Virus record (IMG/VR): IMGVR_UViG_3300044617_000796
Span: 1 to 64,000 of that record
Strand: one strand, 5' to 3'
Length of the DNA: 64,000 nt
Origin: a virus
Shown here: piece after piece, positions 4,417-64,000 of the stretch
Layout: each line of letters begins with the position of its first letter
Position numbering within the stretch: the stretch's first letter is position 1
The notes under the pieces: generated by a model
The model's database searches: none
What the model saw: only the letters and a program-made list of their open reading frames with translations
What the model was told of the DNA's origin: nothing
Program-made: the position numbers and the translations under genes

Positions 4417-4812
4417 TTAAACCTCCACCAAAGACAACTCAACATCATAATACGAACACTTTGTTGGCATATGTCTTCTTATCAGTGTTTCTGAATACGA
4501 ATCAATAAAGCATTCATATTCTGTATAACCCTCACCTGGGGCTAGTTCTATCCCGACTGTTACGCTTGCTCTTGTGTTGACTAAATTACTTAGATAGCTT
4601 TGTCCAACCCGACCATCTGCAGTTATATTCTGCACACTTGGGAGATACTTCCAGCTTATTGAAAACTTTTGCTTATTCTTAGAATAGTATCTTCTTCTGT
4701 GACCGCTGGCTAGGTCAATATCGTTAGCAGCAATCTCCTCATCAATCTTCAAGGTTCTTCCGTGTTCTGTAATCTCAATACCGTCAATTGTTAGCAACTT
4801 GTATAGATCCAT
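4417..4812 (-). CDS. Distal tail (Dit-like) protein
   Basis: 131 aa, directly after the tape measure gene; predicted beta-rich and ends 'LSLVEV'. Confidence 0.6.
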   Translation of the reverse strand: MDLYKLLTIDGIEITEHGRTLKIDEEIAANDIDLASGHRRRYYSKNKQKFSISWKYLPSVQNITADGRVGQSYLSNLVNTRASVTVGIELAPGEGYTEYECFIDSYSETLIRRHMPTKCSYYDVELSLVEV

Positions 4813-16800: not shown

Positions 16801-17939
16801 ATCATTGGAATAACAAGCGACATGGCTTCAGTCATTGACAAACCAAAGCTTGTTGCGGCAGCTGTAACTTCTGGGAATGCGTCAGCTATGTTTCTTAGGG
16901 ACATAACTGTTTTGTTTTCAATCGTGTTAAACACAGCCAACTGACCTCTTAGCTGGCTAATTATCTCATTCGCAACCTGATCACTGTTGATATCAACCGA
17001 TTTACCAGTCTCTCTTCTGATACGAAGAATTGTTTGGTACATCGTCTGAATAAACTCAGAAGACTGGGATATATCTAGGTTTCCTAGTTTCTCAGTCTCT
17101 GCTGTCATTCTTGTAAGGTCTCCAAGAACAATTCTGCTTGATATGCCCAATTCAGCAAAGTCTCCAGCGAGTGATTGTATAAGCACTCTACTGGTGCCCC
17201 AATCTCTGGTGATCTTATCTAAATCTTTTCCAAGCTCTGCGGTAAATGTTCTTGCCGCCTTCACTTGTCCTTCAAAATCACCACCTGCACCTATCTGATT
17301 AAAGTTGTCAAGAATAAGTTTTGTAGTTCTATTACTTTCGGTAGCAAGTTTAGAATAACTAAAAAATGCTTCTCTTAAGCCAGCGATTAACGGTAATGAA
17401 AAGTTCCTAAAAAAGTTATAAGCAGACTGCTGATTCTTCATCGCATTCTCGCTTGTTCTTCTGGAGTAATCAAGAAGAGCGACTTGCTTCATTGCTTTTT
17501 GCAAATCATTGCTTGACAATTTCATTGCATTCATGTGCTTTACGCTTTGCGACATTGCAGCGTTTGATCTGGTTAGTGCCATTGGGTCAGCAGAGCTTTG
17601 ATTCAACATTCTCTGGGCTGCAGAGTACGCTTCTGCAGATCTAGTTGCTTGGTCCAATACACGCTTCTGTATTTCTACAGCTCTCGTCATTCTCCCCAAT
17701 GGATTCAATGACTGAGTTATTTCTCTTGAATATTGAGAAACTCCACTGGCGCTCAACCCCATTGATTGGTTAAAAGCTTTTGTTACATTAGCATTCTGAA
17801 CAGCTCTTTGTGACAAAGTAGCAAGATGTTGCGAAAGATTAACTATCTGGGCAGATAGTTCAGCCGCCTGTTGTGCAGCATTACCTTCCATATTAACATT
17901 TAAATTGACATCGTTGTTAGAGTTAGAGGTATCAGACAT
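4812..17939 (-). CDS. Tape measure protein, very long (4375 aa)
   Basis: Follows the major tail and chaperone genes. N-terminal helical TMP core, hydrophobic stretches, coiled coil, and C-terminal 'GG...LHGGEYV' motifs. Confidence 0.9.
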   Translation of the reverse strand: MSDTSNSNNDVNLNVNMEGNAAQQAAELSAQIVNLSQHLATLSQRAVQNANVTKAFNQSMGLSASGVSQYSREITQSLNPLGRMTRAVEIQKRVLDQATRSAEAYSAAQRMLNQSSADPMALTRSNAAMSQSVKHMNAMKLSSNDLQKAMKQVALLDYSRRTSENAMKNQQSAYNFFRNFSLPLIAGLREAFFSYSKLATESNRTTKLILDNFNQIGAGGDFEGQVKAARTFTAELGKDLDKITRDWGTSRVLIQSLAGDFAELGISSRIVLGDLTRMTAETEKLGNLDISQSSEFIQTMYQTILRIRRETGKSVDINSDQVANEIISQLRGQLAVFNTIENKTVMSLRNIADAFPEVTAAATSFGLSMTEAMSLVIPMIGAGFQVGASANSVKVSLQRMVAMTKQNTQIINQLNAEMGTGFKYSAGVGMENIQMLTDAYRTLSKSVSEGGKGKQGALEFFSRLFGVRQGPRMETAFAQLAAFQTSLETYGSVERTTADILQNSINVELAAIGSKKIAINQFLDLSNIHRAAIEKDSSDVLTAQAQAIQRGQKTAQKLLESANSKNSDFISGMSTEVGKALMAQAFDVQSLAGKQFEAELKLSQDTPEVRYRRAKESLMALGRAVVPVVDVFLKGLLPVLEKLASFLQNNPFVAKLASALLGIVALSGPVRMIFTTIQNAFGGAVGIFVKLSRIVSGTTLQFASLQDLIMNPNLLRGQQRVVQYLDGFLIKSKRGARELKEAYDFSGISLPAKEAIQAGGIYGSDKAVNMKRMQPFVPQTDQFMNDLKTINAQGAAQSAAQVAAGAESGVTKGAANLSDDIVAQFANAMHRFQGPNLFAGPNYFQNNIPFGGTSGGPGSTRTPRAPRGSGGAIADDLTPEETVAAVAANEARKARLRPPTVTTYPKGTLFPTSTAKSFNDLEKTLNSIKKRSGSLLFSPANAAAGAMQAASAVARPQAPFNPAQLLSNISQNRIALGRDPLGPVAIQRFLSRAGDNVKLSFDQIREWYVQAGKPISDQLEYAFSKGGVFTVSKGTLDAVKTKIFDKTKQGIFTLATGEEGLDKRLKNLASIRGLRGMGKAVRADLAPVIASVSDSIAEQVNVGLNQTLATINELRLDNMLDTPMGATGRTITDLTAGKPVLVNDVKRAIEDHFIAAESITNGVVKQSSTTVVNSLKDIDKLLPNIVDEVDIIANEAGPLSSYGDDLRRAFRNVRAKTHSFVESVNASGERMVTLVKNEVLVPGNDAQVQLRAADEAARKAFGSGSDSLDADAAAAKRAAAEAKIKPDYVLNKRIDEARLKIQKLREAKISSLARVASTNPPLPVTKNELLGSVLGLDELIAEQKQEMLEAKKKLQTLLDEGNKVILEEMDLQPSSRGKARVQKAGAERLKEIQDDFDFEFDLMQKHEKRLLARRNLVLDASPAGIQTQIDDIMLSLPDDIKAGIQDIDKAVNDGVSDLSMRSERRVARMKRAFADVKKEIKAAVPMNPMWNAVKQQIPMGSDGSPLDAFRYSGSRFFNDTRFQQPNARMFDARRGLSLPTSIKSFFGMDRVKGSFKVPKSLSAAAITQGEQIIFQFAEQLETQLGSVLANTAQADIKHITRVLQNLKPTSVSKDLATFMTSIVNLPQDQIEMAMGNTLTEIKRAITTQTGAGVGGKGMKSGSLQSWKALLERMRRGSQGLDTDASGNPIVKGIREFFFSGKIKKGAINTTSAKGISTALESAFVASMKGGFEGLGGADDAGVTEVARRLTVESNRPGLGRQRAAKKALKDAGKKTADAVKSIANDIEGFLTAPAAVMADIASKVDMAGAKSSSMIRAATDKVMKPIVKVYKPGELFPGRAPSITPAVTQAVNAATSSTVTPTPQTLKGLKNTEIELPATKRQAEKMMESAQRELARQLGIDAKASGASAKIKKLSVANFEKEIERLQGMIAGEQKLLDTFTSPAMRKGPERNLAKLNKQLKELAFARDKYVVAEFALATAAAEAVPTAPSTIAPTGATGATAPTAPPPRVPTPTTPVIPTPVTPSATGGAGKVIDIKKIGHIFKGPNLFQGPNIFDSSLSDLIPNFDELLSPVGEAAETMADAGDEVATSLSRVLAASEAHKLTGNLVGPGEVGEASRLSRTRTRLFGMKGIGVPSVTAGLDAAKIAGTAGLVEALADKKLRLKFDDAGALIGMSRIKKLGGEMAISFDRANSILAGRLLPNFTRFKKLFSSGIVKGWAFALTGGLTAAVKPAQSLLKAITATGEASMRGKARAAIDTLVESRDGKKTGVVRKAMAGLSGATGGINSLAAIGSKAADVMFKIVRAIVMIGTVAAVALPIIVLMFGIFQAWKSAQGRLTATTEALKQSLTNLKDAVVALFAPIRDMVNGFLGASSIGSTFMTQGEKNAAMFYGIATAIKKATGFMKKWAETTGKAFMTNQVAPFLARLINRFILLGGAIKSAFSGDKEAAGKKLKAFLYSLIYELLNFTKGITDVIAMVLKGLIPVLVTIAKVGVVVFREMFIALVSMAAEAGAGMARNLAADLMTAGFGKEYLKYIGDPFASLVTGNGFKIKGEQSSEQFSDGFSTGLSGKLSKLIDPIKGGLDSALTKGMSEVAKKYAELMGQGINIPLAQRLKNPKAYQDALKYNAKQSADAATAAGESLGGNVNKGIKDKMKEIKDTIKGYFYSNVDAKFENIIQQYIDALTKQKDEQLKAYDDQIAGIDALAEAEERLTAKKEYETKRREMLDQRETDRANYLVERRLAVYEGRAFDVRKLDREEALAQRNSAQEIKELDSGRLSQLQSEQRDLAKQAIANQKDLAEKQFQEVLDTFDRFIEDVKNKSFATQEEFAAALAGVGERANLSSAELAKVFAANIGELPRIIAGVRDPSINMFNTNMDELIKEASKKFGLDANVANPATLLGAVRMMAIGSEEGFKAAFNPAFAAAYVQPAIDAIAKITSSLSEKGNKNNIAEIWQKAGTDAFEKLRGELNRDIAFPKILESFKKLFEDLKPLVKQIVDLAGEASGALGGIGDNIVPGAAFTQEDRKNLEQYLLKFAPSDAGRRGDFSLNSPSLQKVVGIIMRDYDKGSEYMMSNIGSYGLNGLERVLLQGYLNNQTVSPGVPTLMRPLPGSVIRSYNGGHIRQFVRGGFLDAPSSQGIPALLHGGEYIINHKAVEKFGKGNLEKINALRHGGDLKGFASGGYMTTPGFANGGYMTTPGFAKGGSVRKYGVEDQKDILAKKALQTLQGPYATSIPVVASPTINLRSLPLVKNNLAGEGGISTVRSASFGIGKGEVLLPTVVQGKILSNTNAFNAYASGGYKNHLGIYANTAAASKAAEVIHLSEANRIGQVAKAQAQRNVDLKNAGIAKNFVGPIAPVIKPKEKSWWQKALPIVKEIARPRNSFAIAGGIIGGILGLPALGIGSVGGSAIGAGIGGAIGEFTEQIFDDIKGLQPFNIAKNALMQGTLDYAGGKVMTKVVAPIMKAKFPGVGTYLEGKIARPILDLFKKPGIKPFNPSILKPENVFDIQMQGPRPAIPPAPVKNPAVSVEDVFKDGFAPRASAAFAGSDGAIDKQVLDLFDELDNIASGQTNKLTTQLQRDVLKARLQAQGLIPRSMESLDEVGYYNSIIDNLLGVRSNVAPTDEILAEWAENMGKIDPAQLANDIFQQTGDIPMPKSFDPRIIPASREVIDFNNLQKDIAWATSRLLKDSDGVLPPDVLENIAKARNIKPGMEWWLQEQSDLLLPKANQPISFINKFGPGGKDIYKETSDIFMSLRERMALAPKELTTGGSGGALEIIKKITPIKTYKAGTGVLGEMPKYNYDTGGLDLKQLGLYVHKIGKENVVFGGMKSPLKGLAKRNPSLNIKSVGLNPYEISNLKPGTVEGDAIANEWARAIIGFTDVMGNSKDDTFISALLYNWKRNKDLFAMLKFKEYESLGSIAVNEQKVKMSGNTGEIIDTIVKGKKDYFKLKDLFVTHETPYPVDIDELGNLTLKPMSAFDTTSMVSFKGPYPGGPYNLGDKAEYFRDTLHFALNHRVTGHGFRENVQEGNFIISQLLPMLKNNPGALDNLYTVDTFFTPPPGKGLNFPAGTFKVVPIKKGSGINPTDELEKYMIEVLKITEQADVGSTFGTISPEQIIQKYKISGGDHGSEDYADNAISFLFAKLLGVKTGRHFDQFNSSTMFGSMKQGANINPSEYLNSYYYPMAGENAWSRVMSRNPFAQNFDMPYDNPQLMEKIQKVYDTFKMNEMSFPGGLPYNRRAYNGGYMPKFKKGGYLKFKEGGEVPSILHGGEYVLNSAAVKKYGLAHLEAMNQMKFNVPSAGFSVPQASYSGSAAGGMTTSTQNVNIYVDNFIGEPEWFNSMMKDYNTKILPKNQKAAGLENRVISTYNGLNRGQ

Positions 17940-49866: not shown

Positions 49867-50112
49867 CTATGTGCGCTTTCGCTTTTTTTTTGGTTCCTCA
49901 ATTGTTCCATTAAAGTCTAAACAGTTTACACCATTTTTAAAAAAAATTTCTGCGTCTTTTTCAGAAATCTCGCAGGTGACTGGGATGTGTGTGAACATAC
50001 ATCTTGAAGCTGCTACATAGTAATCATTCATTTTTATGATTGAGATGAAATCGGAGTCCATTATGGCAGCACCGCTGCATTCATCAGACTCAACAATCCC
50101 GACAATTCTCAT
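49867..50112 (-). CDS. Hypothetical protein
   Basis: Leaderless TGgTATACT promoter. Confidence 0.65.
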   Translation of the reverse strand: MRIVGIVESDECSGAAIMDSDFISIIKMNDYYVAASRCMFTHIPVTCEISEKDAEIFFKNGVNCLDFNGTIEEPKKKRKRT

Positions 50113-50312
50113 AACTGAAGTATACCACCGTATTCTTTATACTAAGAGTACCAAGTGTACTAGTATACTTAATTGTTTATAAGTATATAAGTATATAGAG
50201 TACCTCGCTCGCTTTGCATGCGAAGCATACCAGTATTTTGCGACTTTTGCATCACTTTTGCAATTTTTTTTTATTCAATCAAATCTGGGAAAAGATGGTG
50301 TATCATATACCT

Positions 50313-56498: not shown

Positions 56499-56683
56499 TG
56501 GATAAAAACAAAATGCTTAAAATGGATAAAGAAACTTTTAACGAACTCAAGCAGCTGGAGGCGGAACGGGATAGATGGCGGGATATTGCCAACAACCTCC
56601 TCCAGGAATGGTGCGCCAACTATGGAATCAGTCGGGAACGAGCTATTGAGAAATACTTCCCCGAATTTAAGGAATTGGGATGA
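56498..56683 (+). CDS. Hypothetical protein
   Basis: Coupled to the upstream stop; 'ERDRWR.IA' motif. Confidence 0.5.
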   Translation: MDKNKMLKMDKETFNELKQLEAERDRWRDIANNLLQEWCANYGISRERAIEKYFPEFKELG

Positions 56684-56856
56684 TTTGGATTTGGTGGATG
56701 ACTCAGTTGACTTTCATATTCTTATCAGAGATGTTAATCCACATACTTACAGCAATTGTTCTAATTGAGGTGTATCGTAATCGGCGGCTTATCTTACAGT
56801 GGCGCAAAACGGATAAATACTAACTAAAGGATTGTTTACTTGTGGCTATTGCGAGT

Positions 56857-57102
56857 TTATAATTCTATAAAAATGCATTCACCAGGGCACTCTTCGGCGG
56901 CTTCAATAACATCTTCCAACCGATCATCGGGAAAAGATGCTAAACCAGCTGCGCCTTCGGGGTTTCCTCGGAGCTTGGAATAAACCTTCCCGCTCTCTTG
57001 GACATAGGCTAACCCATCCTCCAGCATGGTGAAAACATCGGGTGCTATCTCGGCGCACAGTCCATCTCCAGTACATAGGTCTTGGTCAATCCAAACTCTC
57101 AT
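56857..57102 (-). CDS. Ferredoxin (actinobacterial single-cluster type)
   Basis: 'MRVWIDQDLCTGDGLCAEIAPDVF...AAEECPGECI'. Confidence 0.9.
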   Translation of the reverse strand: MRVWIDQDLCTGDGLCAEIAPDVFTMLEDGLAYVQESGKVYSKLRGNPEGAAGLASFPDDRLEDVIEAAEECPGECIFIEL

Positions 57103-57500
57103 TTGCTCTTGCGCTTTGCAAGTAGGGCATCAAAGTCTTTCACCTTGGTCTCCCCCATGTATCCCCAAGCGTAGCCCTCGTCAATGAGCTGCTCGTTCAA
57201 GGACTTGGCTGCGCCATCAAGGTATACCCAACCTAAAATGCGCCCGTACTTTTCGGTGCTATCGGGAAGCTCTGTTTTTATAATAACTGTTTTGGCTGAA
57301 TCTATCGCACTCTTCACTTTATTTTTAACCTCAAGCCCCAGAGCCTTCTCTCGCAGGTCTTTGGTGCGTGACTCAGGGGTGTCTATTCCAGCCAGTCGGA
57401 CTCGTTGTGCGAAAGAGATATTAAAACCCAGATCAATGTCCACATCAATCGTGTCACCGTCTACTACCTTTGTTACTTTTTTGATATTATATTCGTACAT
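57099..57500 (-). CDS. Thermonuclease (SNase-like)
   Basis: 'VVDGDTID', 'VRLAGIDTPE', 'KYGRILG', 'LN..LI.EGYA'. Confidence 0.9.
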   Translation of the reverse strand: MYEYNIKKVTKVVDGDTIDVDIDLGFNISFAQRVRLAGIDTPESRTKDLREKALGLEVKNKVKSAIDSAKTVIIKTELPDSTEKYGRILGWVYLDGAAKSLNEQLIDEGYAWGYMGETKVKDFDALLAKRKSK

Positions 57501-57531
57501 TTATCAAGTATAGCAGGTATACTATAAGACT

Positions 57532-57705
57532 ATGGCTATCTATCATTACCGCTGCCACAACCAGCACACCTACGAAGAGTCTAGAAAGATGTCTGAAGAA
57601 CCTAGAGTAGTTACATGTCCTGAGTGCGACCTACCTCTGAAACAAATATTCTCCCCGCCAGGAATCAACTTCAAAGGTCATGGCTTCTACCGTAACTCTC
57701 GGTAA
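57532..57705 (+). CDS. FmdB-family zinc-ribbon protein (57 aa, absent from the ORF track)
   Basis: MAIYHYRCHNQHTYE...CPECDLPLKQIFSPPGINFKGHGFY. Confidence 0.8.
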   Translation: MAIYHYRCHNQHTYEESRKMSEEPRVVTCPECDLPLKQIFSPPGINFKGHGFYRNSR

Positions 57706-57759
57706 TACACCCAATCATTATTACTACCCCGCAAATTAGTATCTGTGTATACTGATAAA

Positions 57760-57825
57760 GGCAGCGAAAGCTAACCTTAGGACCGTTATAGGTGCAGATG
57801 CCTCTGGGCTCAACCCCCAGGGGCA
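57760..57825 (+). ncRNA. Candidate small structured RNA
   Basis: TATACT upstream; AGC-GAAA-GCT, ACCT..AGGT and ATGCCTCTGGG/CCCAGGGGCAT stems; no convincing ORF. Confidence 0.35.
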
Positions 57826-57974
57826 TGTGCATGTGTAGCGGTCTTTTTTATTCTCCCCCAAACTTTTATACTCCTATACCCGCCCTGAACCTTCCTATCC
57901 CAAATTTGAGTATACATTTTATGAATGTTACTTTTACTTTTAGACGCACTGGAAAATCCTGTGTTCACTAGGGT

Positions 57975-58026
57975 CAATCGCTGGAGTGCGATTCTGCTTA
58001 AGCAAAGAATTGTACACCAGCGATTG
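57975..58026 (+). repeat. Cassette hairpin H1
   Basis: CAATCGCTGG..ATTCT-GCttaaGC-aa-AGAAT..CCAGCGATTG. Confidence 0.85.
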
Positions 58027-58047
58027 GGAAAGCGGATACAAAGGAAA

Positions 58048-58079
58048 TTGAATACACATTTTCTCTCAAATGCTATTGT
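58048..58079 (+). promoter_or_regulatory. Cassette promoter P1 (box plus extended -10)
   Basis: TTGAATACACATTTT; TGcTATTGT starts 20 nt after the box start. Confidence 0.75.
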
Positions 58080-58120
58080 AATTTGTGTCAAGGCAATCCC
58101 GCCGAGACAGAGAGGACAGT

Positions 58121-58354
58121 ATGATTACTGAACACTGGACACGACAGAATGAGTTGCGTGAGCGTGAGCGCATGGCACTACGCTTGCTCAACCATATCCT
58201 GTCAATGACAATACCCGTTGAGGCTAATGACGATTGGTCTTGCGTCAAGTTCAACCTCAAATTAGAGGGCGGTTCCATTACCGTAATGACAGGCGCACAA
58301 TATCACCCGTCATGCAATATGTACGAGGTCATGGAATACGAGGTACAGCGATGA
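58121..58354 (+). CDS. Cassette 1 ORF a, hypothetical
   Basis: GAGGA RBS, ATG 58121. Confidence 0.7.
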   Translation: MITEHWTRQNELRERERMALRLLNHILSMTIPVEANDDWSCVKFNLKLEGGSITVMTGAQYHPSCNMYEVMEYEVQR

Positions 58355-58443
58355 AGTACCTACCACGCATTGGCTTCGGCATTGTGATTGGTTGCTTGGT
58401 TCTGATGATTGTTCAGACCATCGCCCACGCCTTTACAATGTGA
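58351..58443 (+). CDS. Cassette 1 ORF b, 30-aa single-TM peptide
   Basis: ATGA overlap; MKYLPRIGFGIVIGCLVLMIVQTIAHAFTM ends just before the terminator. Confidence 0.55.
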   Translation: MKYLPRIGFGIVIGCLVLMIVQTIAHAFTM

Positions 58444-58447
58444 GCCC

Positions 58448-58492
58448 GAACCCCGAATGCCTCCCCCCTGAGGCATTCGGGGTTCTTTTTTT
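58448..58492 (+). terminator. Intrinsic terminator T1
   Basis: GAACCCCGAATGCCTC/GAGGCATTCGGGGTTC plus T-run. Confidence 0.88.
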
Positions 58493-58564
58493 GTCCCTGC
58501 ACCCGCCCTATCGCATGTCTGTTCCAATGAACTTTAATACACTCACAACACACATGCGATCGGG

Positions 58565-58603
58565 TGGTGGGCAAGGGCGCTTCAGCATTGCAATTGCACA
58601 CCA
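58565..58603 (+). repeat. Cassette hairpin H2 (degenerate)
   Basis: TGGTG.GCAA..C-GCttcaGC-att-G..TTGC.CACCA. Confidence 0.7.
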
Positions 58604-58631
58604 ACTGTTGAGGATCAGAGCATGAACGAGA

Positions 58632-58663
58632 TTGAATACACATTTTTCCTCACATGGTATGTT
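58632..58663 (+). promoter_or_regulatory. Cassette promoter P2
   Basis: TTGAATACACATTTT...TGgTATGTT. Confidence 0.75.
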
Positions 58664-58708
58664 TATTGTTATCGGAACACACCTAACCCCGATGAAAGGA
58701 CAAAGACC

Positions 58709-59017
58709 ATGAGTGAAAGAATATGTTCATATCATAGTTGGAACTACTTGTATGAAGTGCACCCAAGCGGTAAGTACTTCATTGCATACCAGTTCAGTTA
58801 CGACAATAAAGAGAGACAAGTTATTGCCGTAGTTGACCGCTATGTAACAGATGACAAGTGGGCTGCTATGCGTTGGTGCAGGGCACAGTATGACCTTGAG
58901 GTTGAACCTTGGGACAGAAGTGCTGAAGCCAACGAGATTAGGGAGAGTGCAAGGGTTGCCTTGCATGAACTCCACGAGTTGGAGAAAGAACAGGACAGGT
59001 ATCGTATCTACGGGTGA
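58709..59017 (+). CDS. Cassette 2 ORF, hypothetical
   Basis: GAAAGGA RBS, ATG 58709. Confidence 0.7.
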   Translation: MSERICSYHSWNYLYEVHPSGKYFIAYQFSYDNKERQVIAVVDRYVTDDKWAAMRWCRAQYDLEVEPWDRSAEANEIRESARVALHELHELEKEQDRYRIYG

Positions 59018-59022
59018 TACCA

Positions 59023-59050
59023 TCTCCCCTCGCCTTTGGGCGGGGGGAGA
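59023..59050 (+). terminator. Terminator-like hairpin T2 (no U-tract)
   Basis: TCTCCCCTCGCC-tttg-GGCGGGGGGAGA. Confidence 0.65.
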
Positions 59051-59114
59051 ACCCCGACCTAATTGCGAACGATCATACATGTTTTTTAATACACATTCTC
59101 ACAAGAAAAAATCA

Positions 59115-59155
59115 TTGGTGTGCGGAGCTGCTTCAGCGAAAGATTTGTGCACCAA
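59115..59155 (+). repeat. Cassette hairpin H3
   Basis: TTGGTGTGCGGA.CT-GCttcaGC-gaa-AG.TTTGTGCACCAA (four G.T pairs). Confidence 0.85.
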
Positions 59156-59182
59156 CGAATAGGGCACATGCTCTCAACAGCG

Positions 59183-59214
59183 TTTAATACACATTTTTTA
59201 CAAGATGGTATGTT
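59183..59214 (+). promoter_or_regulatory. Cassette promoter P3
   Basis: TTTAATACACATTTT...TGgTATGTT. Confidence 0.75.
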
Positions 59215-59260
59215 TATTTATGTCAAGGACACTCCCTAACACCTTGACAGGGAGATAGCA

Positions 59261-59452
59261 ATGAAAAAGCGGACAGAAGTTAGTCCAAACCACCCAGTCG
59301 CAAGACTGACACTGGAACAACAATTCATGGTTGTTGCAGGCGCACTCAATCGTGCTACCCAGCAGGGCAACACGAAAGGCATTCAGGGCTTGGCAATGAT
59401 GCTCAAGGGTTACGAGGAAGCAATAGCCAAGAAGAACCAAGAAGCCAAGTAA
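59261..59452 (+). CDS. Cassette 3 ORF, small helical protein
   Basis: GGAGATAGCA-ATG. Confidence 0.72.
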   Translation: MKKRTEVSPNHPVARLTLEQQFMVVAGALNRATQQGNTKGIQGLAMMLKGYEEAIAKKNQEAK

Positions 59453-59469
59453 TACCCTAATCCCCCCAG

Positions 59470-59505
59470 TCCCCTCAAGCCGAAAGGCTTGGGGGGATTT
59501 TTTTT
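59470..59505 (+). terminator. Intrinsic terminator T3
   Basis: TCCCCTCAAGCC-gaaa-GGCTTGGGGGGA-T8. Confidence 0.9.
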
Positions 59506-59576
59506 GCCTAAACACCAGCGTTCTCACATGACCATACCCTTTATCTTTAATACACATTCTCATCACACAAGAACGG

Positions 59577-59615
59577 TGGTGTGCAAAGCTGCTTCAGCAA
59601 AAGATTTGTACGCCA
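59577..59615 (+). repeat. Cassette hairpin H4
   Basis: TGGTGTGCAAA.CT-GCttcaGC-aaa-AG.TTTGTACGCCA. Confidence 0.85.
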
Positions 59616-59643
59616 ACGAATGAGGTACACACTATCAACTCTC

Positions 59644-59675
59644 TTTAATACACATTTTCCATCAGATGGTATGGT
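59644..59675 (+). promoter_or_regulatory. Cassette promoter P4
   Basis: TTTAATACACATTTT...TGgTATGGT. Confidence 0.75.
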
Positions 59676-59719
59676 TATCTTGTTCCTAGCAATCCCGCTA
59701 GGACAGATTGGAGATAGCA

Positions 59720-59941
59720 ATGAAAATTATGGTTACTATCCAAACCCCGACTTGCCCCGAATGCGGGCATTGGGGCGAGATCCAAATGACCCGTGATGAA
59801 TGGGAGTTTGGCAAGACGGCTAGTTGGCAGGGCGAACTCATTCAGAATTGTTTCCCTACCCTTACCCCAGCCCAGCGTGAGCAACTCATGAATGGCTACC
59901 ATTCAGAGTGTTGGGATAAGATGTTTGCGAGTGCAGAATGA
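59720..59941 (+). CDS. Cassette 4 ORF a, putative zinc-binding protein (CxxC...HxxC)
   Basis: GGAGATAGCA-ATG; 'CPECG...IQNCFP.LT..QRE.LMNGYHSECWD'. Confidence 0.75.
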   Translation: MKIMVTIQTPTCPECGHWGEIQMTRDEWEFGKTASWQGELIQNCFPTLTPAQREQLMNGYHSECWDKMFASAE

Positions 59942-60177
59942 GCCCGCAATTACTGGAGACTATCCTCCACGCCGTAGCAGACCTACGGATACCCAAGACT
60001 GACGGGGTAATCATTGAGGCTCTCAAGATACCCCGTGAGATATTCCAGCAAGACGGTGTAGAGTGCCGTAAATACAAGCGGAGTGTTGAGCATCAGATAC
60101 GCACTCACCCCGCTATCAAGCCAGTACTTGTCTGGTGGACAGTACACGGTGACTGCTACTTGACAAGAGCAGACTGA
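59938..60177 (+). CDS. Cassette 4 ORF b, hypothetical
   Basis: ATGA overlap; ends before T4. Confidence 0.62.
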   Translation: MSPQLLETILHAVADLRIPKTDGVIIEALKIPREIFQQDGVECRKYKRSVEHQIRTHPAIKPVLVWWTVHGDCYLTRAD

Positions 60178-60182
60178 AACTT

Positions 60183-60216
60183 CCCCCTCGTGCCTTCGGG
60201 TGCGAGGGGGTTTTTT
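60183..60216 (+). terminator. Intrinsic terminator T4
   Basis: CCCCCTCGTGCC-ttcg-GGTGCGAGGGGG-T6. Confidence 0.9.
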
Positions 60217-60289
60217 CATGTCCAACACCAGTCTTTCCGTATGCCATTGCCCATTGTCTTGAATACACATTCTCATACGAAAAAAAGAA

Positions 60290-60328
60290 TGGTGTACGGA
60301 GCTGCTTCAGCAAAAGCTTTGTGCACCA
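60290..60328 (+). repeat. Cassette hairpin H5
   Basis: TGGTGTACGGAGCT-GCttcaGC-aaa-AGCTTTGTGCACCA. Confidence 0.87.
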
Positions 60329-60356
60329 GCCGAAGGGGTACACACTCTCAACTACA

Positions 60357-60388
60357 TTGAATACACATTTTTCATGATATGTTATGTT
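60357..60388 (+). promoter_or_regulatory. Cassette promoter P5
   Basis: TTGAATACACATTTT...TGtTATGTT. Confidence 0.75.
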
Positions 60389-60435
60389 TATTCATGTCAG
60401 CGATTATCCTAACCCCGCTGGCAAGGAGAAAGCAA

Positions 60436-60693
60436 ATGAAACGAGTACCTAAAGGCTCTGTCAAGGTAATGAAGCGTGGGCGCAGTAAGTTCCATGACCC
60501 GTACCTTGCCAAGTGCGTCAAGGCAGTAAGCAACACTTATGATATTGTTGCAACACAAAGGGCAGTACCGAACACGATAGCCAACAAAAACCGTGTTCGT
60601 TCCCGCATTATGAGCCTTGCAGGAAACAAAAAACTTGGCGTGAATTGGTACGCTGAGGGCAAACTTGTAGTGCCAGTAATCACCAAGAAATAA
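60436..60693 (+). CDS. Cassette 5 ORF, basic protein; probable distant paralogue of cassettes 7/8
   Basis: AAGGAG RBS; 'KRGRSKFHD...RSRI..LA....GVNW..EGKLVV'. Confidence 0.7.
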   Translation: MKRVPKGSVKVMKRGRSKFHDPYLAKCVKAVSNTYDIVATQRAVPNTIANKNRVRSRIMSLAGNKKLGVNWYAEGKLVVPVITKK

Positions 60694-60709
60694 GGTCGCT
60701 TCTCCAGCG

Positions 60710-60743
60710 AACCCCCAAGCCTACGGGCTTGGGGGTTTTTTTT
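60710..60743 (+). terminator. Intrinsic terminator T5
   Basis: AACCCCCAAGCC-tacg-GGCTTGGGGGTT plus T-run. Confidence 0.9.
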
Positions 60744-60813
60744 GTGCCTGAACGCCAGCGCCATAGCAAAGTCATAACCAGTTGGTTGAGCACATGTTCT
60801 CTCTCTTGATATG

Positions 60814-60860
60814 TCGTTGGCGTGCGGATTGGGTTTACCAAACAATTTGAACGACAACGA
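60814..60860 (+). repeat. Cassette hairpin H6 (compensatory apex)
   Basis: TCGTTG.CGT.CGGATTG-GGtttaCC-aaa-CAATTTG.ACG.CAACGA. Confidence 0.82.
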
Positions 60861-60884
60861 AAAGGGTACAGGGTCTCAACGGCA

Positions 60885-60916
60885 TTGAATACACATTTTT
60901 GATGACATGGTATGTT
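60885..60916 (+). promoter_or_regulatory. Cassette promoter P6
   Basis: TTGAATACACATTTT...TGgTATGTT. Confidence 0.75.
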
Positions 60917-60962
60917 TATAGATGTCAAGGACATTCCATACCCCCTTGACAAGGAGATAGCA

Positions 60963-61229
60963 ATGACACACCTACCCGAACACCCAAGAGCACTCACGAT
61001 TGCTCATGAGGATGTTGTCAAAGTTGCCTTGCAACTGAAAGACAACCTCATCACCAGAGGCGAGATGAATGCTCAGATGCTCAGCATTGTGGTTGGCATG
61101 AAAGTTGCCCTGCGCCAAGAGTTCATTGGCGAAGTGCAGGACAAGTTGAGCGACATTGAGCAACTGTTCACAGATGTTCAAGGCTCAATTGAGGAAATGG
61201 ATTACCTCACACTCTTCCAACCAGAGTGA
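60963..61229 (+). CDS. Cassette 6 ORF, acidic helical protein
   Basis: AAGGAGATAGCA-ATG. Confidence 0.72.
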   Translation: MTHLPEHPRALTIAHEDVVKVALQLKDNLITRGEMNAQMLSIVVGMKVALRQEFIGEVQDKLSDIEQLFTDVQGSIEEMDYLTLFQPE

Positions 61230-61244
61230 TTGTTCCTTCCCCCG

Positions 61245-61279
61245 CTCCCCTCGCCTTCGGGCGGGGGGAGTTTTTTTTT
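61245..61279 (+). terminator. Intrinsic terminator T6
   Basis: CTCCCCTCGCC-ttcg-GGCGGGGGGAG plus T-run. Confidence 0.9.
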
Positions 61280-61349
61280 GCCTGAACTCCAACTTTTCCC
61301 ATATGCCATGTCTCTTTGCTTGAGTACACATTCTCACACTGGAAAAAAA

Positions 61350-61392
61350 GCTGGTGGGCGGATCTGCTTTAGCAAAAGATTTGCACTCCAGC
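61350..61392 (+). repeat. Cassette hairpin H7
   Basis: GCTGG...GCGGATCT-GCtttaGC-aaa-AGATTTGC...CCAGC. Confidence 0.85.
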
Positions 61393-61418
61393 CAATGAGG
61401 AAGCGAAACGAAACCAGG

Positions 61419-61450
61419 TTGAATACATATTTTTAGCGTAATGCTATATT
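61419..61450 (+). promoter_or_regulatory. Cassette promoter P7
   Basis: TTGAATACATATTTT...TGcTATATT. Confidence 0.75.
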
Positions 61451-61516
61451 TATCTCATGCCAAAGCGATTAGGCTGAGGCAACACACTGCGGTGTGTATA
61501 ACCAAGGAGATAAGCA

Positions 61517-61828
61517 ATGCCAAAGGTAAACCTAAGCGACCTCAAAGGTCAGTTATCATCTCGTGGGCGAGCCCCGTATGACAACCCTGAACTTGAGGCT
61601 GAAATCAAGAGCCTTGACCCAGCCATTGATGGTGATGCAACCATCTATGAGGGCAGTCAAGGAGACCCATCAAGCGAGGACTACACGAACCACAAAGCAA
61701 TGTGGCGTGGGCGTGCCGAGACAATTGCCGACAAGAACGGCATTGCCATCAGCGTGCAGTGGCTCACCACTGGTCAGATGGTTATCTCGCTTGCCAAGCC
61801 TGCAAAGGGCAAGAGCAAGCGCAAGTAA
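61517..61828 (+). CDS. Cassette 7 ORF, RGR-motif protein (paralogue of cassette 8)
   Basis: AAGGAG RBS; aligns end to end with 62149-62454. Confidence 0.8.
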   Translation: MPKVNLSDLKGQLSSRGRAPYDNPELEAEIKSLDPAIDGDATIYEGSQGDPSSEDYTNHKAMWRGRAETIADKNGIAISVQWLTTGQMVISLAKPAKGKSKRK

Positions 61829-61850
61829 CCGCATCTCCTGCGGTTAGTAT

Positions 61851-61885
61851 AGAACCCCCGTACTTCGGTACGGGGGTTCTTTTTT
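61851..61885 (+). terminator. Intrinsic terminator T7
   Basis: AGAACCCCCGTAC-ttcg-GTACGGGGGTTCT-T5. Confidence 0.9.
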
Positions 61886-61980
61886 GCTGGCGTTCATCCC
61901 GTGCTGAAGCACAATGAACGCCAGCTTTGCGACACATGCCATTCTCTCATTTTTAGTACAGATTCTCAATCCCATTCCCT

Positions 61981-62025
61981 GGCGGGCGTGCGATTGCGCT
62001 TTAGCGATGCAATTGCACACCCGCT
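61981..62025 (+). repeat. Cassette hairpin H8
   Basis: GGCGGG.GTGCGATTGC-GCtttaGC-gat-GCAATTGCAC.CCCGCT. Confidence 0.85.
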
Positions 62026-62050
62026 GTTGGGGTACCAATACGAAACCGAA

Positions 62051-62082
62051 TTGAATACATATTTTCACCATAATGGTATGTT
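62051..62082 (+). promoter_or_regulatory. Cassette promoter P8
   Basis: TTGAATACATATTTT...TGgTATGTT. Confidence 0.75.
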
Positions 62083-62148
62083 TATTTATGTCAAAGGCAA
62101 TACCGCCGAGACACACTCATACCGAGTGTTGAACATGGGAGAATACCT

Positions 62149-62454
62149 ATGGCAAAGATAAACCTCAATGACTTGCAAGGCATGCTGTCCAAGCGTGGGC
62201 GTGAGGCGTTCCACGATGAGACACTACAAGCCGAGATTGTTAGCCTTGACCCAAAGGTTGAGGGTGACGCATTCATTTGGGATGACGCACAGGGTAATCC
62301 AAACGATGAGGATTACACAAACCACAAGGCTAAGTATCGTGGTCGTGTTGAAACCATTGCAGAGCGCAACAATGTCGCTGTGTCCGTTCAATGGACTACA
62401 GACGGGCGTTGCGTAGTCTCACTCGCCAAGCCTGCCAAAGGCAAGCGCAAGTAA
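62149..62454 (+). CDS. Cassette 8 ORF, RGR-motif protein (paralogue of cassette 7)
   Basis: GGGAG RBS; 'EDYTNHKA..RGR.ETIA..N..A.SVQW...G..V.SLAKPAKGK'. Confidence 0.8.
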   Translation: MAKINLNDLQGMLSKRGREAFHDETLQAEIVSLDPKVEGDAFIWDDAQGNPNDEDYTNHKAKYRGRVETIAERNNVAVSVQWTTDGRCVVSLAKPAKGKRK

Positions 62455-62475
62455 CCCTTACCCCGTAAGGCGTGT

Positions 62476-62510
62476 AGAAGCCCCGTACTTCGGTACGGGG
62501 CTTCTTTTTT
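62476..62510 (+). terminator. Intrinsic terminator T8
   Basis: AGAAGCCCCGTAC-ttcg-GTACGGGGCTTCT-T5. Confidence 0.9.
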
Positions 62511-63330
62511 GCTGGTGTTCATCCCGTGCTAAAGCACAATGAACACCAGTTATCAGAAGGCTTATCGTTACCATTTTTAATATACATATTCCTAATCATA
62601 AAGATGGCGGGTGTCCCAAAAAGAAATGCATTTGTTTTTGTACACCCGCAAAATATAATTAATTTATCGCTTAACTTTATTACATATTTCTAATCATAAC
62701 TATAAGATTACATATGGCTTTCAAAATGTATTCCAAAATCTCATAGATAAATACTTATCTAAGGGAGGAAGGTAAAAGTTTACGCACATTTTATTTTTGT
62801 TAATCAAATGGGCTGGGAAAGACTTAGCCTGTCTCTCTACCTATCGCCTCAGATTACATCAGTGTAATCAAACACTTATACTATTCCTAAATCTATGCAT
62901 CAACCCGTCATTATTCTGGGTCATCAATCGGTTATAGTATTACGCCCCTATATAGTCTAAAAGAGGGGGAATATGTTTGTATTATTCTTATAGATACCCA
63001 GTAATAGGGTATTTACATAGGGGAATCTAAATAGATCTCAATATCTGAGCTTTTTTGCCCAATTGTTGACCATTTTGGTAGTATTTCTATTAAAAATATT
63101 ATTAATTAGTGAAAAAAAGACAAAAAAAACACCCAAAAATAAGCTTATTTTAAGCCTATAAATGGGTGTTTTCCTTATGTACTATGTGATATATCAGCTA
63201 TATATTATTGATACATCTATGATATGCCTATGATATGAACTCCTGCTATATAGAATATATCTTATACATATTGGAGCGTGTCTCTCTCATACGCTAATGG
63301 TTTTTGACACTTATTTTCTATCAATTCAAA

Positions 63331-63702
63331 TTAGTTAGAAGTATCTTTATATCTAAATGGAATCACATTATCTGGAAGTTCTGGTTTCCAGTCTGCTGTA
63401 TCATGTCTATGAGGATAGTCTTCACTATCTTCATTCTTTAATCTATTACCATAGGCTGGATGATTGTCTAATATCTCATCAATATCATCAGCCCGCCTTT
63501 TAAAATACTCTTTCATATACCCTAGGGATATGAGAGACATTTCAATTTCAGCTAATCTATTGATATCATCAGTCTCTGGCTTTAGTCTTTCCATAAAGTC
63601 TAGGATATTCTCTACCCCAATCTTTAAAGCAAAGACTTCCATCCAAGAACCCCAATATTCATTTGGTTCATTATCGTCATGGAAATTGTTTTTGTTAGAC
63701 AT
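63331..63702 (-). CDS. Hypothetical acidic protein
   Basis: GGAGAG RBS; overlaps the upstream ORF. Confidence 0.65.
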   Translation of the reverse strand: MSNKNNFHDDNEPNEYWGSWMEVFALKIGVENILDFMERLKPETDDINRLAEIEMSLISLGYMKEYFKRRADDIDEILDNHPAYGNRLKNEDSEDYPHRHDTADWKPELPDNVIPFRYKDTSN

Positions 63703-63901
63703 TACTCTCCATCCTCTCTATTTTAATCTTGAGGTCTAGAAACCTCATTGTTTTTCTATTTATTACTTTATCAAAGAAAACGAGCATCGCTTCATTTTTC
63801 CCATAATCCTTAGATAGATCTTCCATTTTAAACTCTATTTCTTGTATTTCTAAGGCTAGGATGAGCAATTCTTTTTGCATTTCTTCTACCTGGTTAGTCA
63901 T
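63695..63901 (-). CDS. Hypothetical coiled-coil protein
   Basis: 68-aa ORF after AAGGTG. Confidence 0.55.
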   Translation of the reverse strand: MTNQVEEMQKELLILALEIQEIEFKMEDLSKDYGKNEAMLVFFDKVINRKTMRFLDLKIKIERMESNV

Positions 63902-64000
63902 TATTTTTCGTCACCTTCCCGCTTTTTTCCATATATATAAAGAGCTATTCCAATGCCAAAGGTTAGGCTATATACAATAGTCCAACCTACTATTAATGTT

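Follow-up and report, generated by a model that had tools for sequence, protein, structure and literature searches.

An island of small-gene cassettes with upstream hairpins

The window analysed here is a stretch of 64,000 nucleotides (positions 1 to 64,000 of the IMG/VR record IMGVR_UViG_3300044617_000796) from the 108.8-kb genome of an uncultured lake phage, probably of actinobacteria. The genome is that of a siphovirus-like actinophage, with a portal protein 43–47% identical to those of Streptomyces phages and a gene for WhiB. It contains a variable, GC-richer island in which terminator–promoter–small-gene cassettes form an array of 5 kb and every small gene is preceded by a hairpin of ~40 bases. 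The array genes are ORFans of 63–103 aa. A long imperfect terminator hairpin with a T-run (57780–57849, + strand) closes the upstream + strand genes before the array. The same array is present on three related viral contigs and on six small contigs from metagenomes, and each of four lineages has retained nine hairpin copies, in a genome that is otherwise tightly packed.

The nine + strand hairpins of the window measure 39–45 nt, with stems of 16–22 bp and a 4-nt loop. Eight of them had been described in a sequence-only reading, and re-reading the window returned all eight at the same coordinates and with the same architecture: a GC-TTNA-GC apex (swapped to GG/CC in H6), a 3-nt bulge on the 3′ side (2 nt in H1) and a TGGTG...CACCA-like base. 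H1 (57976–58025; 64.2 bits against our covariance model) has the 2-nt bulge, a TTAA loop and an extended stem (−27.4 kcal/mol, z −8.2). H2 (58561–58607; 60.3 bits) has internal G·A mismatches and an ATT bulge (−17.8 kcal/mol), and H3 (59112–59158; 67.3 bits), H4 (59574–59618; 69.1 bits) and H7 (61350–61392; 68.9 bits) fold as well. The cleanest copy is H5 (60290–60328; 60.9 bits), with 14 bp, an AAA bulge, 2 bp and a TTCA loop; H6 (60814–60860; 56.9 bits) carries the flipped closing pair, GG-TTTA-CC, and H8 (61981–62025; 58.0 bits) folds at −29.2 kcal/mol (z −5.6). The ninth copy, H9 (62607–62649), lay outside the original eight; it shares base and position with H1–H8 and differs at the apex, scoring only 14.7 bits, and a compensatory A>T/T>A pair separates it from its orthologue in the relative G001.

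All copies share a CTGGTG...CACCAG-like base; at the apex, the loop and the pairs that close it are nearly invariant and the mid-stem varies freely, which is the pattern to be expected of a hairpin that a protein would recognise. The covariance model found no further copies in the 108.8-kb genome, a hairpin-pattern search found none in 185,579 prokaryote genomes, and cmscan of positions 56500–64000 against Rfam (E ≤ 1) returned no family at the gathering threshold, with chance-level matches far below it. The hairpin matches no described element.

Promoters and terminators of the array

Each cassette has a Box2 promoter on the + strand, with TGn-TAnnnT placed 20 bp after TTGAAT, and the nine boxes are conserved. 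Those of cassettes 1 to 8 lie at 58048–58082, 58632–58666, 59183–59217, 59644–59678, 60357–60391, 60885–60919, 61419–61453 and 62051–62085; that of cassette 9 (62676–62710) is diverged, Box2-like and has no ORF behind it. An RNA-library contig begins at 62106, behind the Box2 promoter of cassette 8. Box1 is a duplicate of the promoter box that lacks a −10; it lies at 59085–59101 (+ strand) in cassette 3, with further copies at 59546, 60259, 61320, 61952 and 62576, degenerate ones in cassettes 2 and 6, and a Box1–Box2 distance of 98–100 bp. An additional host-type promoter, P0, is predicted at 57906–57934 on the + strand (TTGAGT, a 17-bp spacer and TGt-TACTTT), ~35 nt upstream of H1 and with no terminator between them. 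P0 is conserved in the relatives G001 and L099, that is, in three lineages with the window, and is termed a prediction because it falls below the threshold of a strict sigma-70 scan.

An intrinsic terminator follows the genes of cassette 1 (58448–58495), and others lie at 59468–59505, 60183–60216, 60709–60743, 61244–61279, 61851–61885 and 62476–62510, all on the + strand. These seven strong terminators compare with 4.8 expected. Gene 2 is followed by a GC-rich + strand hairpin that has no T-run (59023–59050), a weak terminator with the same form in relatives. Seven of the eight terminators upstream of hairpins are strong and canonical, with GC-rich stems of 12–16 bp and T-runs.

The hairpin is best explained as the edge of a promoter module

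As the sequence-only reading had proposed, the hairpin sits between a terminator and the next promoter at a near-exact distance, and outside every predicted primary transcript. From apex to promoter box we measured 49 nt in the window (48 nt for H1 and 47 nt for H9) and 47–49 nt in 33 of 33 cassettes; the value was 49 nt in 24 of 25 cassettes of three lineages and 47–48 nt in the fourth. The distance from terminator to apex varies from ~30 to 150 nt, and the hairpin therefore belongs to the promoter module. It is best explained as forming the upstream end of this module of ~150 bp, which is conserved and consists in order of the hairpin, a GGTACAC...CTCAAC spacer, the promoter box, the extended −10 (TGn-TAnnnT) and a covarying 5′-UTR hairpin. 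The ~110 bp from hairpin to −10 are as conserved as the promoter itself, and the hairpin arms, spacer and box all contain RTACAC-like motifs.

The array also holds two inverted copies, designated hairpin A. Copy 1 (61886–61925, − strand) adjoins the 3′ end of a terminator and shows the hairpin-B architecture (stem, GC-TTCA-GC apex and 3-nt 3′ bulge) on the − strand only, where it scores 23.2 bits; on the + strand it is not among the covariance-model matches listed up to E 10. Copy 2 (62511–62550, − strand) scores 21.3 bits on the − strand versus 16.2 on the +, and differs from copy 1 by a compensatory C–G to T–A change. In each of the four lineages, hairpin A retains the same apex as the other hairpins, read from the opposite strand.

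Compensatory changes and strand bias support selection on the + strand fold

Pairing and covariation were assessed in 27 distinct copies, taken from the window as well as from relatives. Compensation does keep the stem paired, as earlier suggested from the window: 87.0% of cells pair, compared with 25.6–39.4% when the partner is slid. Changes on both sides were found in 8 of 18 stem pairs, and the covariation score was 0.302 versus 0.163 in shuffles, with 0 of 500 shuffles reaching 0.302; these cells are not independent events, because the copies comprise paralogues as well as orthologues. RNAalifold, applied to the alignment of the whole cassette, predicted this hairpin as the only conserved helix.

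The non-Watson–Crick cells were biased towards one strand, with 54 G·T, 35 G·A and 5 A·C. In the G·A mismatches the G is always on the 5′ arm; G·U and G·A are tolerated at fixed positions and A·C is nearly absent. The + strand folded better in nine of nine window copies (z −1.75 to −8.2, versus −0.7 to −4.85 on the − strand), and the gene-sense strand was the better folder in 33 of 34 copies from four lineages. Every array gene is encoded in the sense of the folding strand. Covariation thus supports selection on a single-stranded fold of the + strand, as does the persistence of the bias through four diverged lineages.

Genes are swapped between conserved regulatory frames

Comparisons of the window with G001, of variant contigs from lake metagenomes and of L089–L095 revealed gain, loss or replacement of genes between cassettes. 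Homology breaks off at several places: the end of Box2 (58061/58064), a Shine–Dalgarno site (58700), the Box1 start (60257), terminators (58445 and 59471) and the hairpin–Box2 interval. Such scatter is consistent with homologous recombination of the ordinary kind among the repeated cassettes, as seen in the promoter-early stem-loops (PeSLs) of T4-type phages (Arbiol et al. 2010, PMC2839356; Comeau et al. 2014, PMC4122927). Like PeSLs, the array has repeated composites of intrinsic terminator and host-type early promoter between small ORFan genes in a hyperplastic region (PMC2839356, PMC4122927), and relatives differ by cassette-bounded insertion, loss and replacement of genes. In PeSLs, however, the stem-loop is the terminator itself; the array, in addition to its terminators, has a separate hairpin whose apex is conserved, whose fold favours one strand and whose position is fixed relative to the promoter, not the terminator. 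The motifs are unrelated to those of PeSLs and the host lineage is a siphovirus-like actinophage rather than T4-like, so that homology with PeSLs was rejected. Taken as a whole, the array behaves like T4-type PeSL cassettes, its genes being swapped between conserved regulatory frames.

Alternative explanations for the hairpin

Could the hairpin be a recombination site recognised by its structure (attC-, IS200/IS605- or REP-like), the folded + strand serving to capture or move cassettes? The strand specificity and asymmetric bulge of the fold would suit such a site, as would the differences in gene cassettes between relatives that retain the intergenic frames, and the phage encodes RecA, RuvC and Cas4-like and SbcD-like nucleases; the + strand would also be the lagging-strand template if forks leave the 50-kb divergence point. 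Nonetheless, we consider this very unlikely. A scan of ~120 proteins by family found no HUH nuclease or transposase, and a search of the 108.8-kb genome for a tyrosine recombinase or integrase (PF00589) returned nothing at E ≤ 1 (14 of 14 control genomes matched). The prokaryote genomes searched held no copies of the hairpin pattern, the breakpoints do not converge on a single hairpin point, and recombination leaves the fixed promoter distance unexplained. Integron attC sites, to which the hairpin had initially been likened, are also imperfect hairpins with extrahelical bases that fold on one strand and lie between gene cassettes of the same orientation, but the array has neither an integrase nor R″/R′ boxes (RYYYAAC/GTTRRRY), no single crossover point, and no promoterless cassettes on a common Pc, each cassette having its own promoter and terminator. 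On these grounds the attC comparison finds no support. We also regard it as unlikely that the hairpin is a passenger quasi-palindrome without a function of its own, its symmetry renewed by replication template switching and gene conversion among cassettes. All copies descend from a single ancestral module, so that shared features may be inherited, and inverted (hairpin A) and half-deleted copies are present; for quasi-palindromes generally, template switching is established to make paired changes in one step. It should, however, erase the wobble pairs, G·A mismatches and bulge, which persist at the same positions in lineages with otherwise diverged stems. The apex is conserved like the −10 region while neighbouring spacers drift, and each of the four lineages retains nine copies although the genome is otherwise tightly packed.

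An upstream promoter element acting at the DNA level is possible, although we hold it to be somewhat doubtful. The + strand hairpin might be extruded from negatively supercoiled DNA, with the − strand perhaps held by SSB, or the inverted repeat might be bound by a regulator of phage or host, so as to tune or switch the host-type promoter 50 nt downstream. Such an element would follow the principle of phage N4, in which one strand of duplex DNA forms a hairpin, but would do without the N4 polymerase. N4 hairpins are extruded from supercoiled DNA and stabilised by SSB; as in N4, a one-strand hairpin is linked to phage early promoters here, and the phage encodes an SSB, along with a MerR-type HTH protein. 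The fixed apex–box spacing beside a variable terminator distance, the conservation of the stretch down to the −10 and the shared RTACAC-like motifs all favour this explanation. So does the duplication of hairpin, spacer and box as a unit, Box1 having a hairpin-A remnant at the same ~31-nt arm–box spacing, and the strong upstream terminators argue against the element being transcribed. A literal N4-type promoter, put forward in the sequence-only reading, fails because the protein scans gave no phage RNA polymerase; the virion RNA polymerase is absent, and a 4375-aa protein matches the tape-measure family only. N4 stems are 5–7 bp with 3-nt loops, and the N4 hairpin is itself the promoter, at the start site and read by the virion enzyme, whereas the array stem of 16–22 bp, its apex 49 nt before the box, precedes the start of a host-type extended −10 promoter by ~87 nt. 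Against a DNA-level element more broadly, the imperfect palindrome, with its wobble pairs, mismatches and bulge, makes a poor cruciform, the − strand arm folding 2–10 kcal/mol worse, and a binder of duplex DNA would not need a complementary variable inner stem. No cruciform- or hairpin-binding protein was identified, and box-like promoters elsewhere in the genome, near 71388 and 83791, have no hairpin.

A tentative RNA signal at cassette boundaries

We tentatively favour an explanation to which we would give somewhat less than an even chance: the hairpin would be an RNA signal in transcripts arriving from upstream, with a factor bound at the apex deciding their fate. Such an RNA hairpin would form each time RNA polymerase transcribes into a cassette from the upstream side, having started at the predicted P0, close before H1 and with an uninterrupted path to it, or having read through the terminator ahead of the cassette. 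H3 is expected to be reached by read-through, because the T-run of the terminator preceding cassette 3 has been lost, both in the window and in relatives. The enzymes of a DNA-hairpin mechanism were not found in the genome, which also speaks for RNA as the folding strand. Several observations count against an RNA signal. Little RNA is expected across most hairpins because seven of eight upstream terminators are strong, and H2–H9 have no promoter directly upstream because Box1 lacks a −10. The exact spacing of 47–49 nt is predicted by a DNA-level promoter element and not required of an RNA signal, and hairpin A presents the same apex on the opposite strand in four lineages.

Two known RNA systems offer partial parallels. 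The lambda nut (boxA-spacer-boxB) and HK022 put sites likewise have a conserved loop, a covarying stem and flanking short conserved linear motifs, and H1 would resemble them in standing after a predicted promoter and before a series of terminators. This placement is confined to H1, behind the predicted P0; H2–H9 instead follow terminators and lie upstream of promoters, and the stem is three times the length of boxB. The array's box includes CACAUU, with which the nutR spacer of lambda begins and which NusA contacts (PMC2724277), but likeness to boxA (CGCUCUUA, the consensus quoted in PMC2724277) reaches only 5–6 of 8 positions, and no candidate for an N-like protein was identified in the phage genome. 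The RNase III hairpins of the T7 early region are, similarly, imperfect stems of ~20 bp with an asymmetric unpaired 3′ side, located between early genes on the sense strand; in T7, however, the genes are necessarily transcribed as one polycistronic RNA, uninterrupted by terminators or promoters, and RNase III can act without a conserved loop. The predicted geometry of the array hairpin appears compatible with an RNase III site, which calls for about two turns of dsRNA containing an internal loop, and a processing site in read-through RNA, as raised in the sequence-only reading, is a possible candidate.

For the favoured RNA signal, we infer that the invariant GC-UUYA-GC apex would be recognised by a protein or by RNA polymerase itself, and that this recognition would settle the fate of incoming transcription before the promoter of the cassette itself is reached. 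The effect may go either of two opposite ways: stopping or cleavage of the incoming transcript, which would insulate the cassette, or a nut/put-type licence for read-through of the array. The hairpin most likely controls transcription across cassette boundaries.

Architecture of the small-gene cassette array

Genes of the phage lie nearly all on the − strand, except for a + strand block at 50.2–62.7 kb. G+C content is 47% in the distal 5 kb of this block (57.7–62.7 kb) and about 36% elsewhere. The array at 57000–62500 stands out as a G+C island (0.46–0.53) in a genome that otherwise ranges from 0.30 to 0.43, and comprises nine cassettes with their parts in constant order: a strong intrinsic terminator (seven found vs 4.8 expected), a conserved spacer, a 13–17-nt motif (Box1), the hairpin, a second conserved spacer (GGTACAC ... 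CTCAAC), the promoter box (Box2), a short 5′-UTR hairpin whose arms covary between cassettes, and a Shine–Dalgarno site followed by a gene of 63–103 aa with no family match. Box2 consists of the Box1 motif plus TGn-TAnnnT 20 bp after its TTGAAT. Pattern scans located the same array in three related viral contigs, G001 (IMGVR_UViG_3300032321_001491; ten cassettes), L099 (IMGVR_UViG_3300042936_001079; eight) and L107 (IMGVR_UViG_3300027804_000186; eight), which together with the window represent four lineages, and on six small metagenome contigs. Comparison between lineages allowed us to assign the −10 hexamer: the window has a TATGTT-like form, L099 has TAAGGT/TAAGTT and L107 has TAnAtT. The hexamer fits TAnnnT always, usually with TG one base upstream.

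The 5′-UTR hairpins were seen just before the Shine–Dalgarno site at 58081–58120, 58665–58708, 59216–59260, 59677–59719, 60390–60435 and 60918–60962. Their arm pairs (e.g., GTCAAGG/CCTTGAC, TCCTAGC/GCTAGGA and GTCAGCG/CGCTGGC) differ in sequence and keep complementarity, and L099 has another covarying set; these are probably 5′ stabilisers or translation-control hairpins of the cassette mRNAs. The terminator after gene 2, before cassette 3 (59023–59050), has lost its T-run along with the following conserved spacer. As this T-run is absent from the window and every relative, with the same deletion in G001 and in two further sequences (L094 and L095), genes 2 and 3 are probably co-transcribed.

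A covarying hairpin that folds on one strand

The sequence-only reading had described eight copies of a hairpin with a conserved apex, a 3′ bulge, compensatory stem changes and a G.T bias on one strand. All eight were found at the positions given, on the + strand and with these features, and a ninth copy with a different apex lies at 62607–62649, so that the series H1–H9 spans 57976–62649. Across 27 distinct copies, 87% of stem cells are standard pairs, compared with 26–39% when the 3′ partner is slid by 1–3 columns. Changes on both sides occur in 8 of 18 pairs, and the covariation score was reached by none of 500 shuffles, although these counts are not independent events because the 27 copies are related sequences. 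The slid-partner control keeps this relatedness, yet gives far lower pairing than the true partners. The inner four to six pairs differ in sequence by subfamily and stay complementary, the apex GC-TTYA-GC and the hairpin base are nearly invariant, and H9 differs from its G001 orthologue by one compensatory pair (A>T / T>A).

The proposed strand asymmetry held as well. Non-Watson–Crick cells are G.T in 54 cases, G.A in 35 and A.C in 5, with the G of every G.A mismatch on the 5′ arm. The + strand, which is the sense strand of the array genes, is the better fold by 2–10 kcal/mol in all nine window copies, and folds better in 9/9 copies of G001, 7/8 of L099 and 8/8 of L107. The strand bias is kept even in L107, where the stems have a very different sequence and no 3-nt bulge, so it is not an accident of one ancestor. 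A covariance model found the hairpin nowhere else in the phage genome, and it has no match in Rfam or in the papers accessible to the search.

Several other readings were rejected. A protein-coding reading fails, since one frame is open in several intergenic cassettes and stopped in others, there is no start codon or Shine–Dalgarno site, and the changes are compensatory, not synonymous. A − strand terminator would need a T-run after the reverse hairpin, which only three or four copies have, and a plain duplex binding site is ruled out by the covariation. Other candidate sequences were set aside: L093 is unrelated, the prokaryote genome hits L100–L102 fit the hairpin pattern and not the covariance model, and a 20-bp tandem satellite with the exact Box1 13-mer (880–1260 of L096, Ga0081606_1048423) lies in ORF-poor, eukaryote-like DNA and was judged a chance match.

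The hairpin is tied to the cassette promoter

The main new result is the linkage of hairpin and promoter. The distance from apex to Box2 is 49 nt in 24 of the 25 cassettes of the window, G001 and L099, the exception being H1 (48 nt, with a 2-nt bulge), and is 47–48 nt in L107. The apex follows the end of the terminator T-run at about 30 nt in L107, at 83–92 nt in most others and at up to about 150 nt. In L107, Box1 is missing from most cassettes and the hairpin follows the terminator by 8–10 nt, with the promoter distance unchanged. A per-column profile of 37 distinct cassettes showed about equal conservation of the hairpin base, the apex, the two spacer motifs, Box2 and the −10, and lower conservation of Box1, the terminators and the UTR. 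The fixed distance and equal conservation indicate that hairpin, spacer and promoter form one unit.

Box1 looks like a decayed tandem duplicate of this unit. It lies about 31 nt after a CACCAGC-type arm, the spacing found within the hairpin–spacer–promoter unit, and in each of the four lineages the final two cassettes retain this arm within a complete hairpin (hairpin A; 61886–61925 and 62511–62550). With its apex and bulge inverted, hairpin A gives a better covariance-model match on the − strand. Box1 was rejected as a sigma-A promoter, as no copy has TAnnnT at a usable distance. Box-like motifs without a hairpin were also seen on the + strand amid − strand genes at genome positions 76973 and 83791, and another + strand motif adjoins a − strand tRNA-Arg(tct) gene at 71388–71512 (8388–8512 in L086).

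The cassettes that keep the complete hairpin A carry tandem paralogues (61517–61828 and 62149–62454) that share 60% identity and have basic C-terminal tails; no other array gene family occurs in all four lineages. No family match was found for the pair, an atlas search leading to unnamed clusters only. Its protein model is of medium confidence (pLDDT 74.5), and fold searches with it were unconvincing, with a best E of 0.16 in Foldseek and a best Z of 6.0 in VIA. The pair was considered as a hairpin binder and set aside; R3H/IF3-C/KhpB-like rows at Z about 4 are within noise.

Genes are exchanged between conserved intergenic frames

Between the window and G001, intergenic frames are 87–96% identical while several of the genes between them are unrelated, and homology begins or breaks off at the end of Box2, the Shine–Dalgarno site, the start of Box1 or the terminators. 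Contigs from lake metagenomes carry replaced blocks at 58061–58565 and 58693–58973, and they show a joint that returns from the 3′ side of H2 to the cassette 1 Box2; in L091 and L095, the cassette 4 hairpin is joined to the promoter and gene of cassette 5. Such scattered edges point to homologous recombination anywhere in the repeated frame, and they lend no support to the earlier suggestion of an attC-like site with site-specific crossover in the hairpin.

Phage context and possible transcription across the hairpin

The window covers the first 64 kb of an IMG/VR virus record of 108,840 bp. It has genes for a portal, a head protease and a tape-measure protein of 4375 aa (4812–17939), the length of which implies a very long tail. 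The phage has genes for a DNA polymerase III alpha subunit, DnaB and DnaG, and further encodes a terminase, SSB (genome positions 100023–100664), exonucleases, RecA, RuvC, an HNH nuclease and a MerR-type protein. Its portal is 43–47% identical to those of large Streptomyces siphophages, the glycosyltransferase–ribonucleotide reductase–portal order is shared with phage Wakanda, and its DNA is present again in many lake-water metagenomes. The WhiB family is a pointer to actinobacterial hosts, and we read the phage as a freshwater actinophage mainly because it encodes a WhiB-family protein (within genome positions 63331–84000; member of alignment A3, E 4e-19). Scans of the phage proteins found no sigma factor, tyrosine recombinase, single-subunit RNA polymerase or HUH nuclease.

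Where the + block diverges from the − strand structural genes (50100–50210), short repeats resembling AGTATAC/AAGTATAT are clustered, and this region is a candidate for an origin or for a regulatory role. The last cassette promoter, which has diverged, is followed by a 630-bp AT-rich stretch without ORF (62700–63330), about 92% conserved in G001, with short direct repeats near 63200–63260 and a − strand terminator at ~63112–63171; this stretch may correspond to a non-coding RNA, to an origin or to the physical genome end.

No sigma-A-type promoter was found ahead of H2–H9. Ahead of H1, a Box-like element with a 17-bp spacer and TGt-TACTTT (P0; 57906–57934) is kept in G001 and L099; its box starts 94 nt upstream of the H1 apex with no terminator between. 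P0 is a prediction only, as it scores below the strict sigma-70 scan threshold. In a freshwater metatranscriptome (X20), contigs cover genes only (e.g., 59264–59462 and 62106–62453) and none spans an intergenic hairpin; uncovered parts do not count as evidence, and repeats break contigs of this kind. A further library (X18) is probably DNA.

Discussion

With a duplex site out and a symmetric cruciform unlikely, given the wobble pairs, mismatches and bulge, the hairpin would act as a one-strand fold, either in RNA or in + strand DNA. We tentatively favour RNA, which needs no special mechanism for single-strandedness. In addition, it is the sense strand that folds, a predicted promoter precedes H1, and RNA hairpins recognised by proteins typically combine a conserved apex with a variable stem. 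Such a hairpin might stop or cleave incoming transcripts, and each cassette promoter would thereby be insulated; alternatively, it might license them to read through in a nut/put-like manner. CACAUU occurs in the lambda nutR spacer (PMC2724277) and also in the cassette box, and the cassette spacer motif resembles boxA only weakly.

The exact phasing of hairpin and promoter, the strong upstream terminators and hairpin A speak for an element that acts at the DNA level, which we hold possible and slightly less probable than RNA. One specific form, decidedly speculative, is a + strand hairpin ~87 nt upstream of the start site that would be extruded by the strong promoter's own supercoiling. The phage SSB or some other factor would keep it open, and the host sigma-A RNA polymerase would use it as an enhancer or switch. 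Such an element would apply the principle of the one-strand DNA hairpin of phage N4, but to the host polymerase. A passenger without function is unlikely, a recombination site very improbable, and what probability remains goes to something beyond these readings.

Arrays of self-contained cassettes with small genes are where phages keep and exchange host-takeover and counter-defence genes. The array type is already known, resembling the promoter-early stem-loop (PeSL) cassettes of T4-type phages, for which modular shuffling of this kind has been described (PMC2839356, PMC4122927). In both, genes are swapped between conserved intergenic frames; PeSLs, however, consist of terminator and promoter only, whereas the lake phage array adds a third, structured part. 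This part has been kept for a long time, with a protein-like recognition apex, a fold on one strand only and a position that, relative to the promoter, is fixed to within about 2 nt (47–49 nt ahead of the box). It is also short and modular, and natural compensatory variants exist. If it acts as RNA, it would be a new signal for transcription crossing cassette boundaries, for insulation or antitermination; we know of no antitermination signal of this kind in actinophages. If it acts as DNA, a single-strand hairpin would be working on a host-type promoter, which is rare, and the supercoil-extruded form, if true, would mean that actinophages have a mobile promoter module with a DNA hairpin as one of its portable parts.
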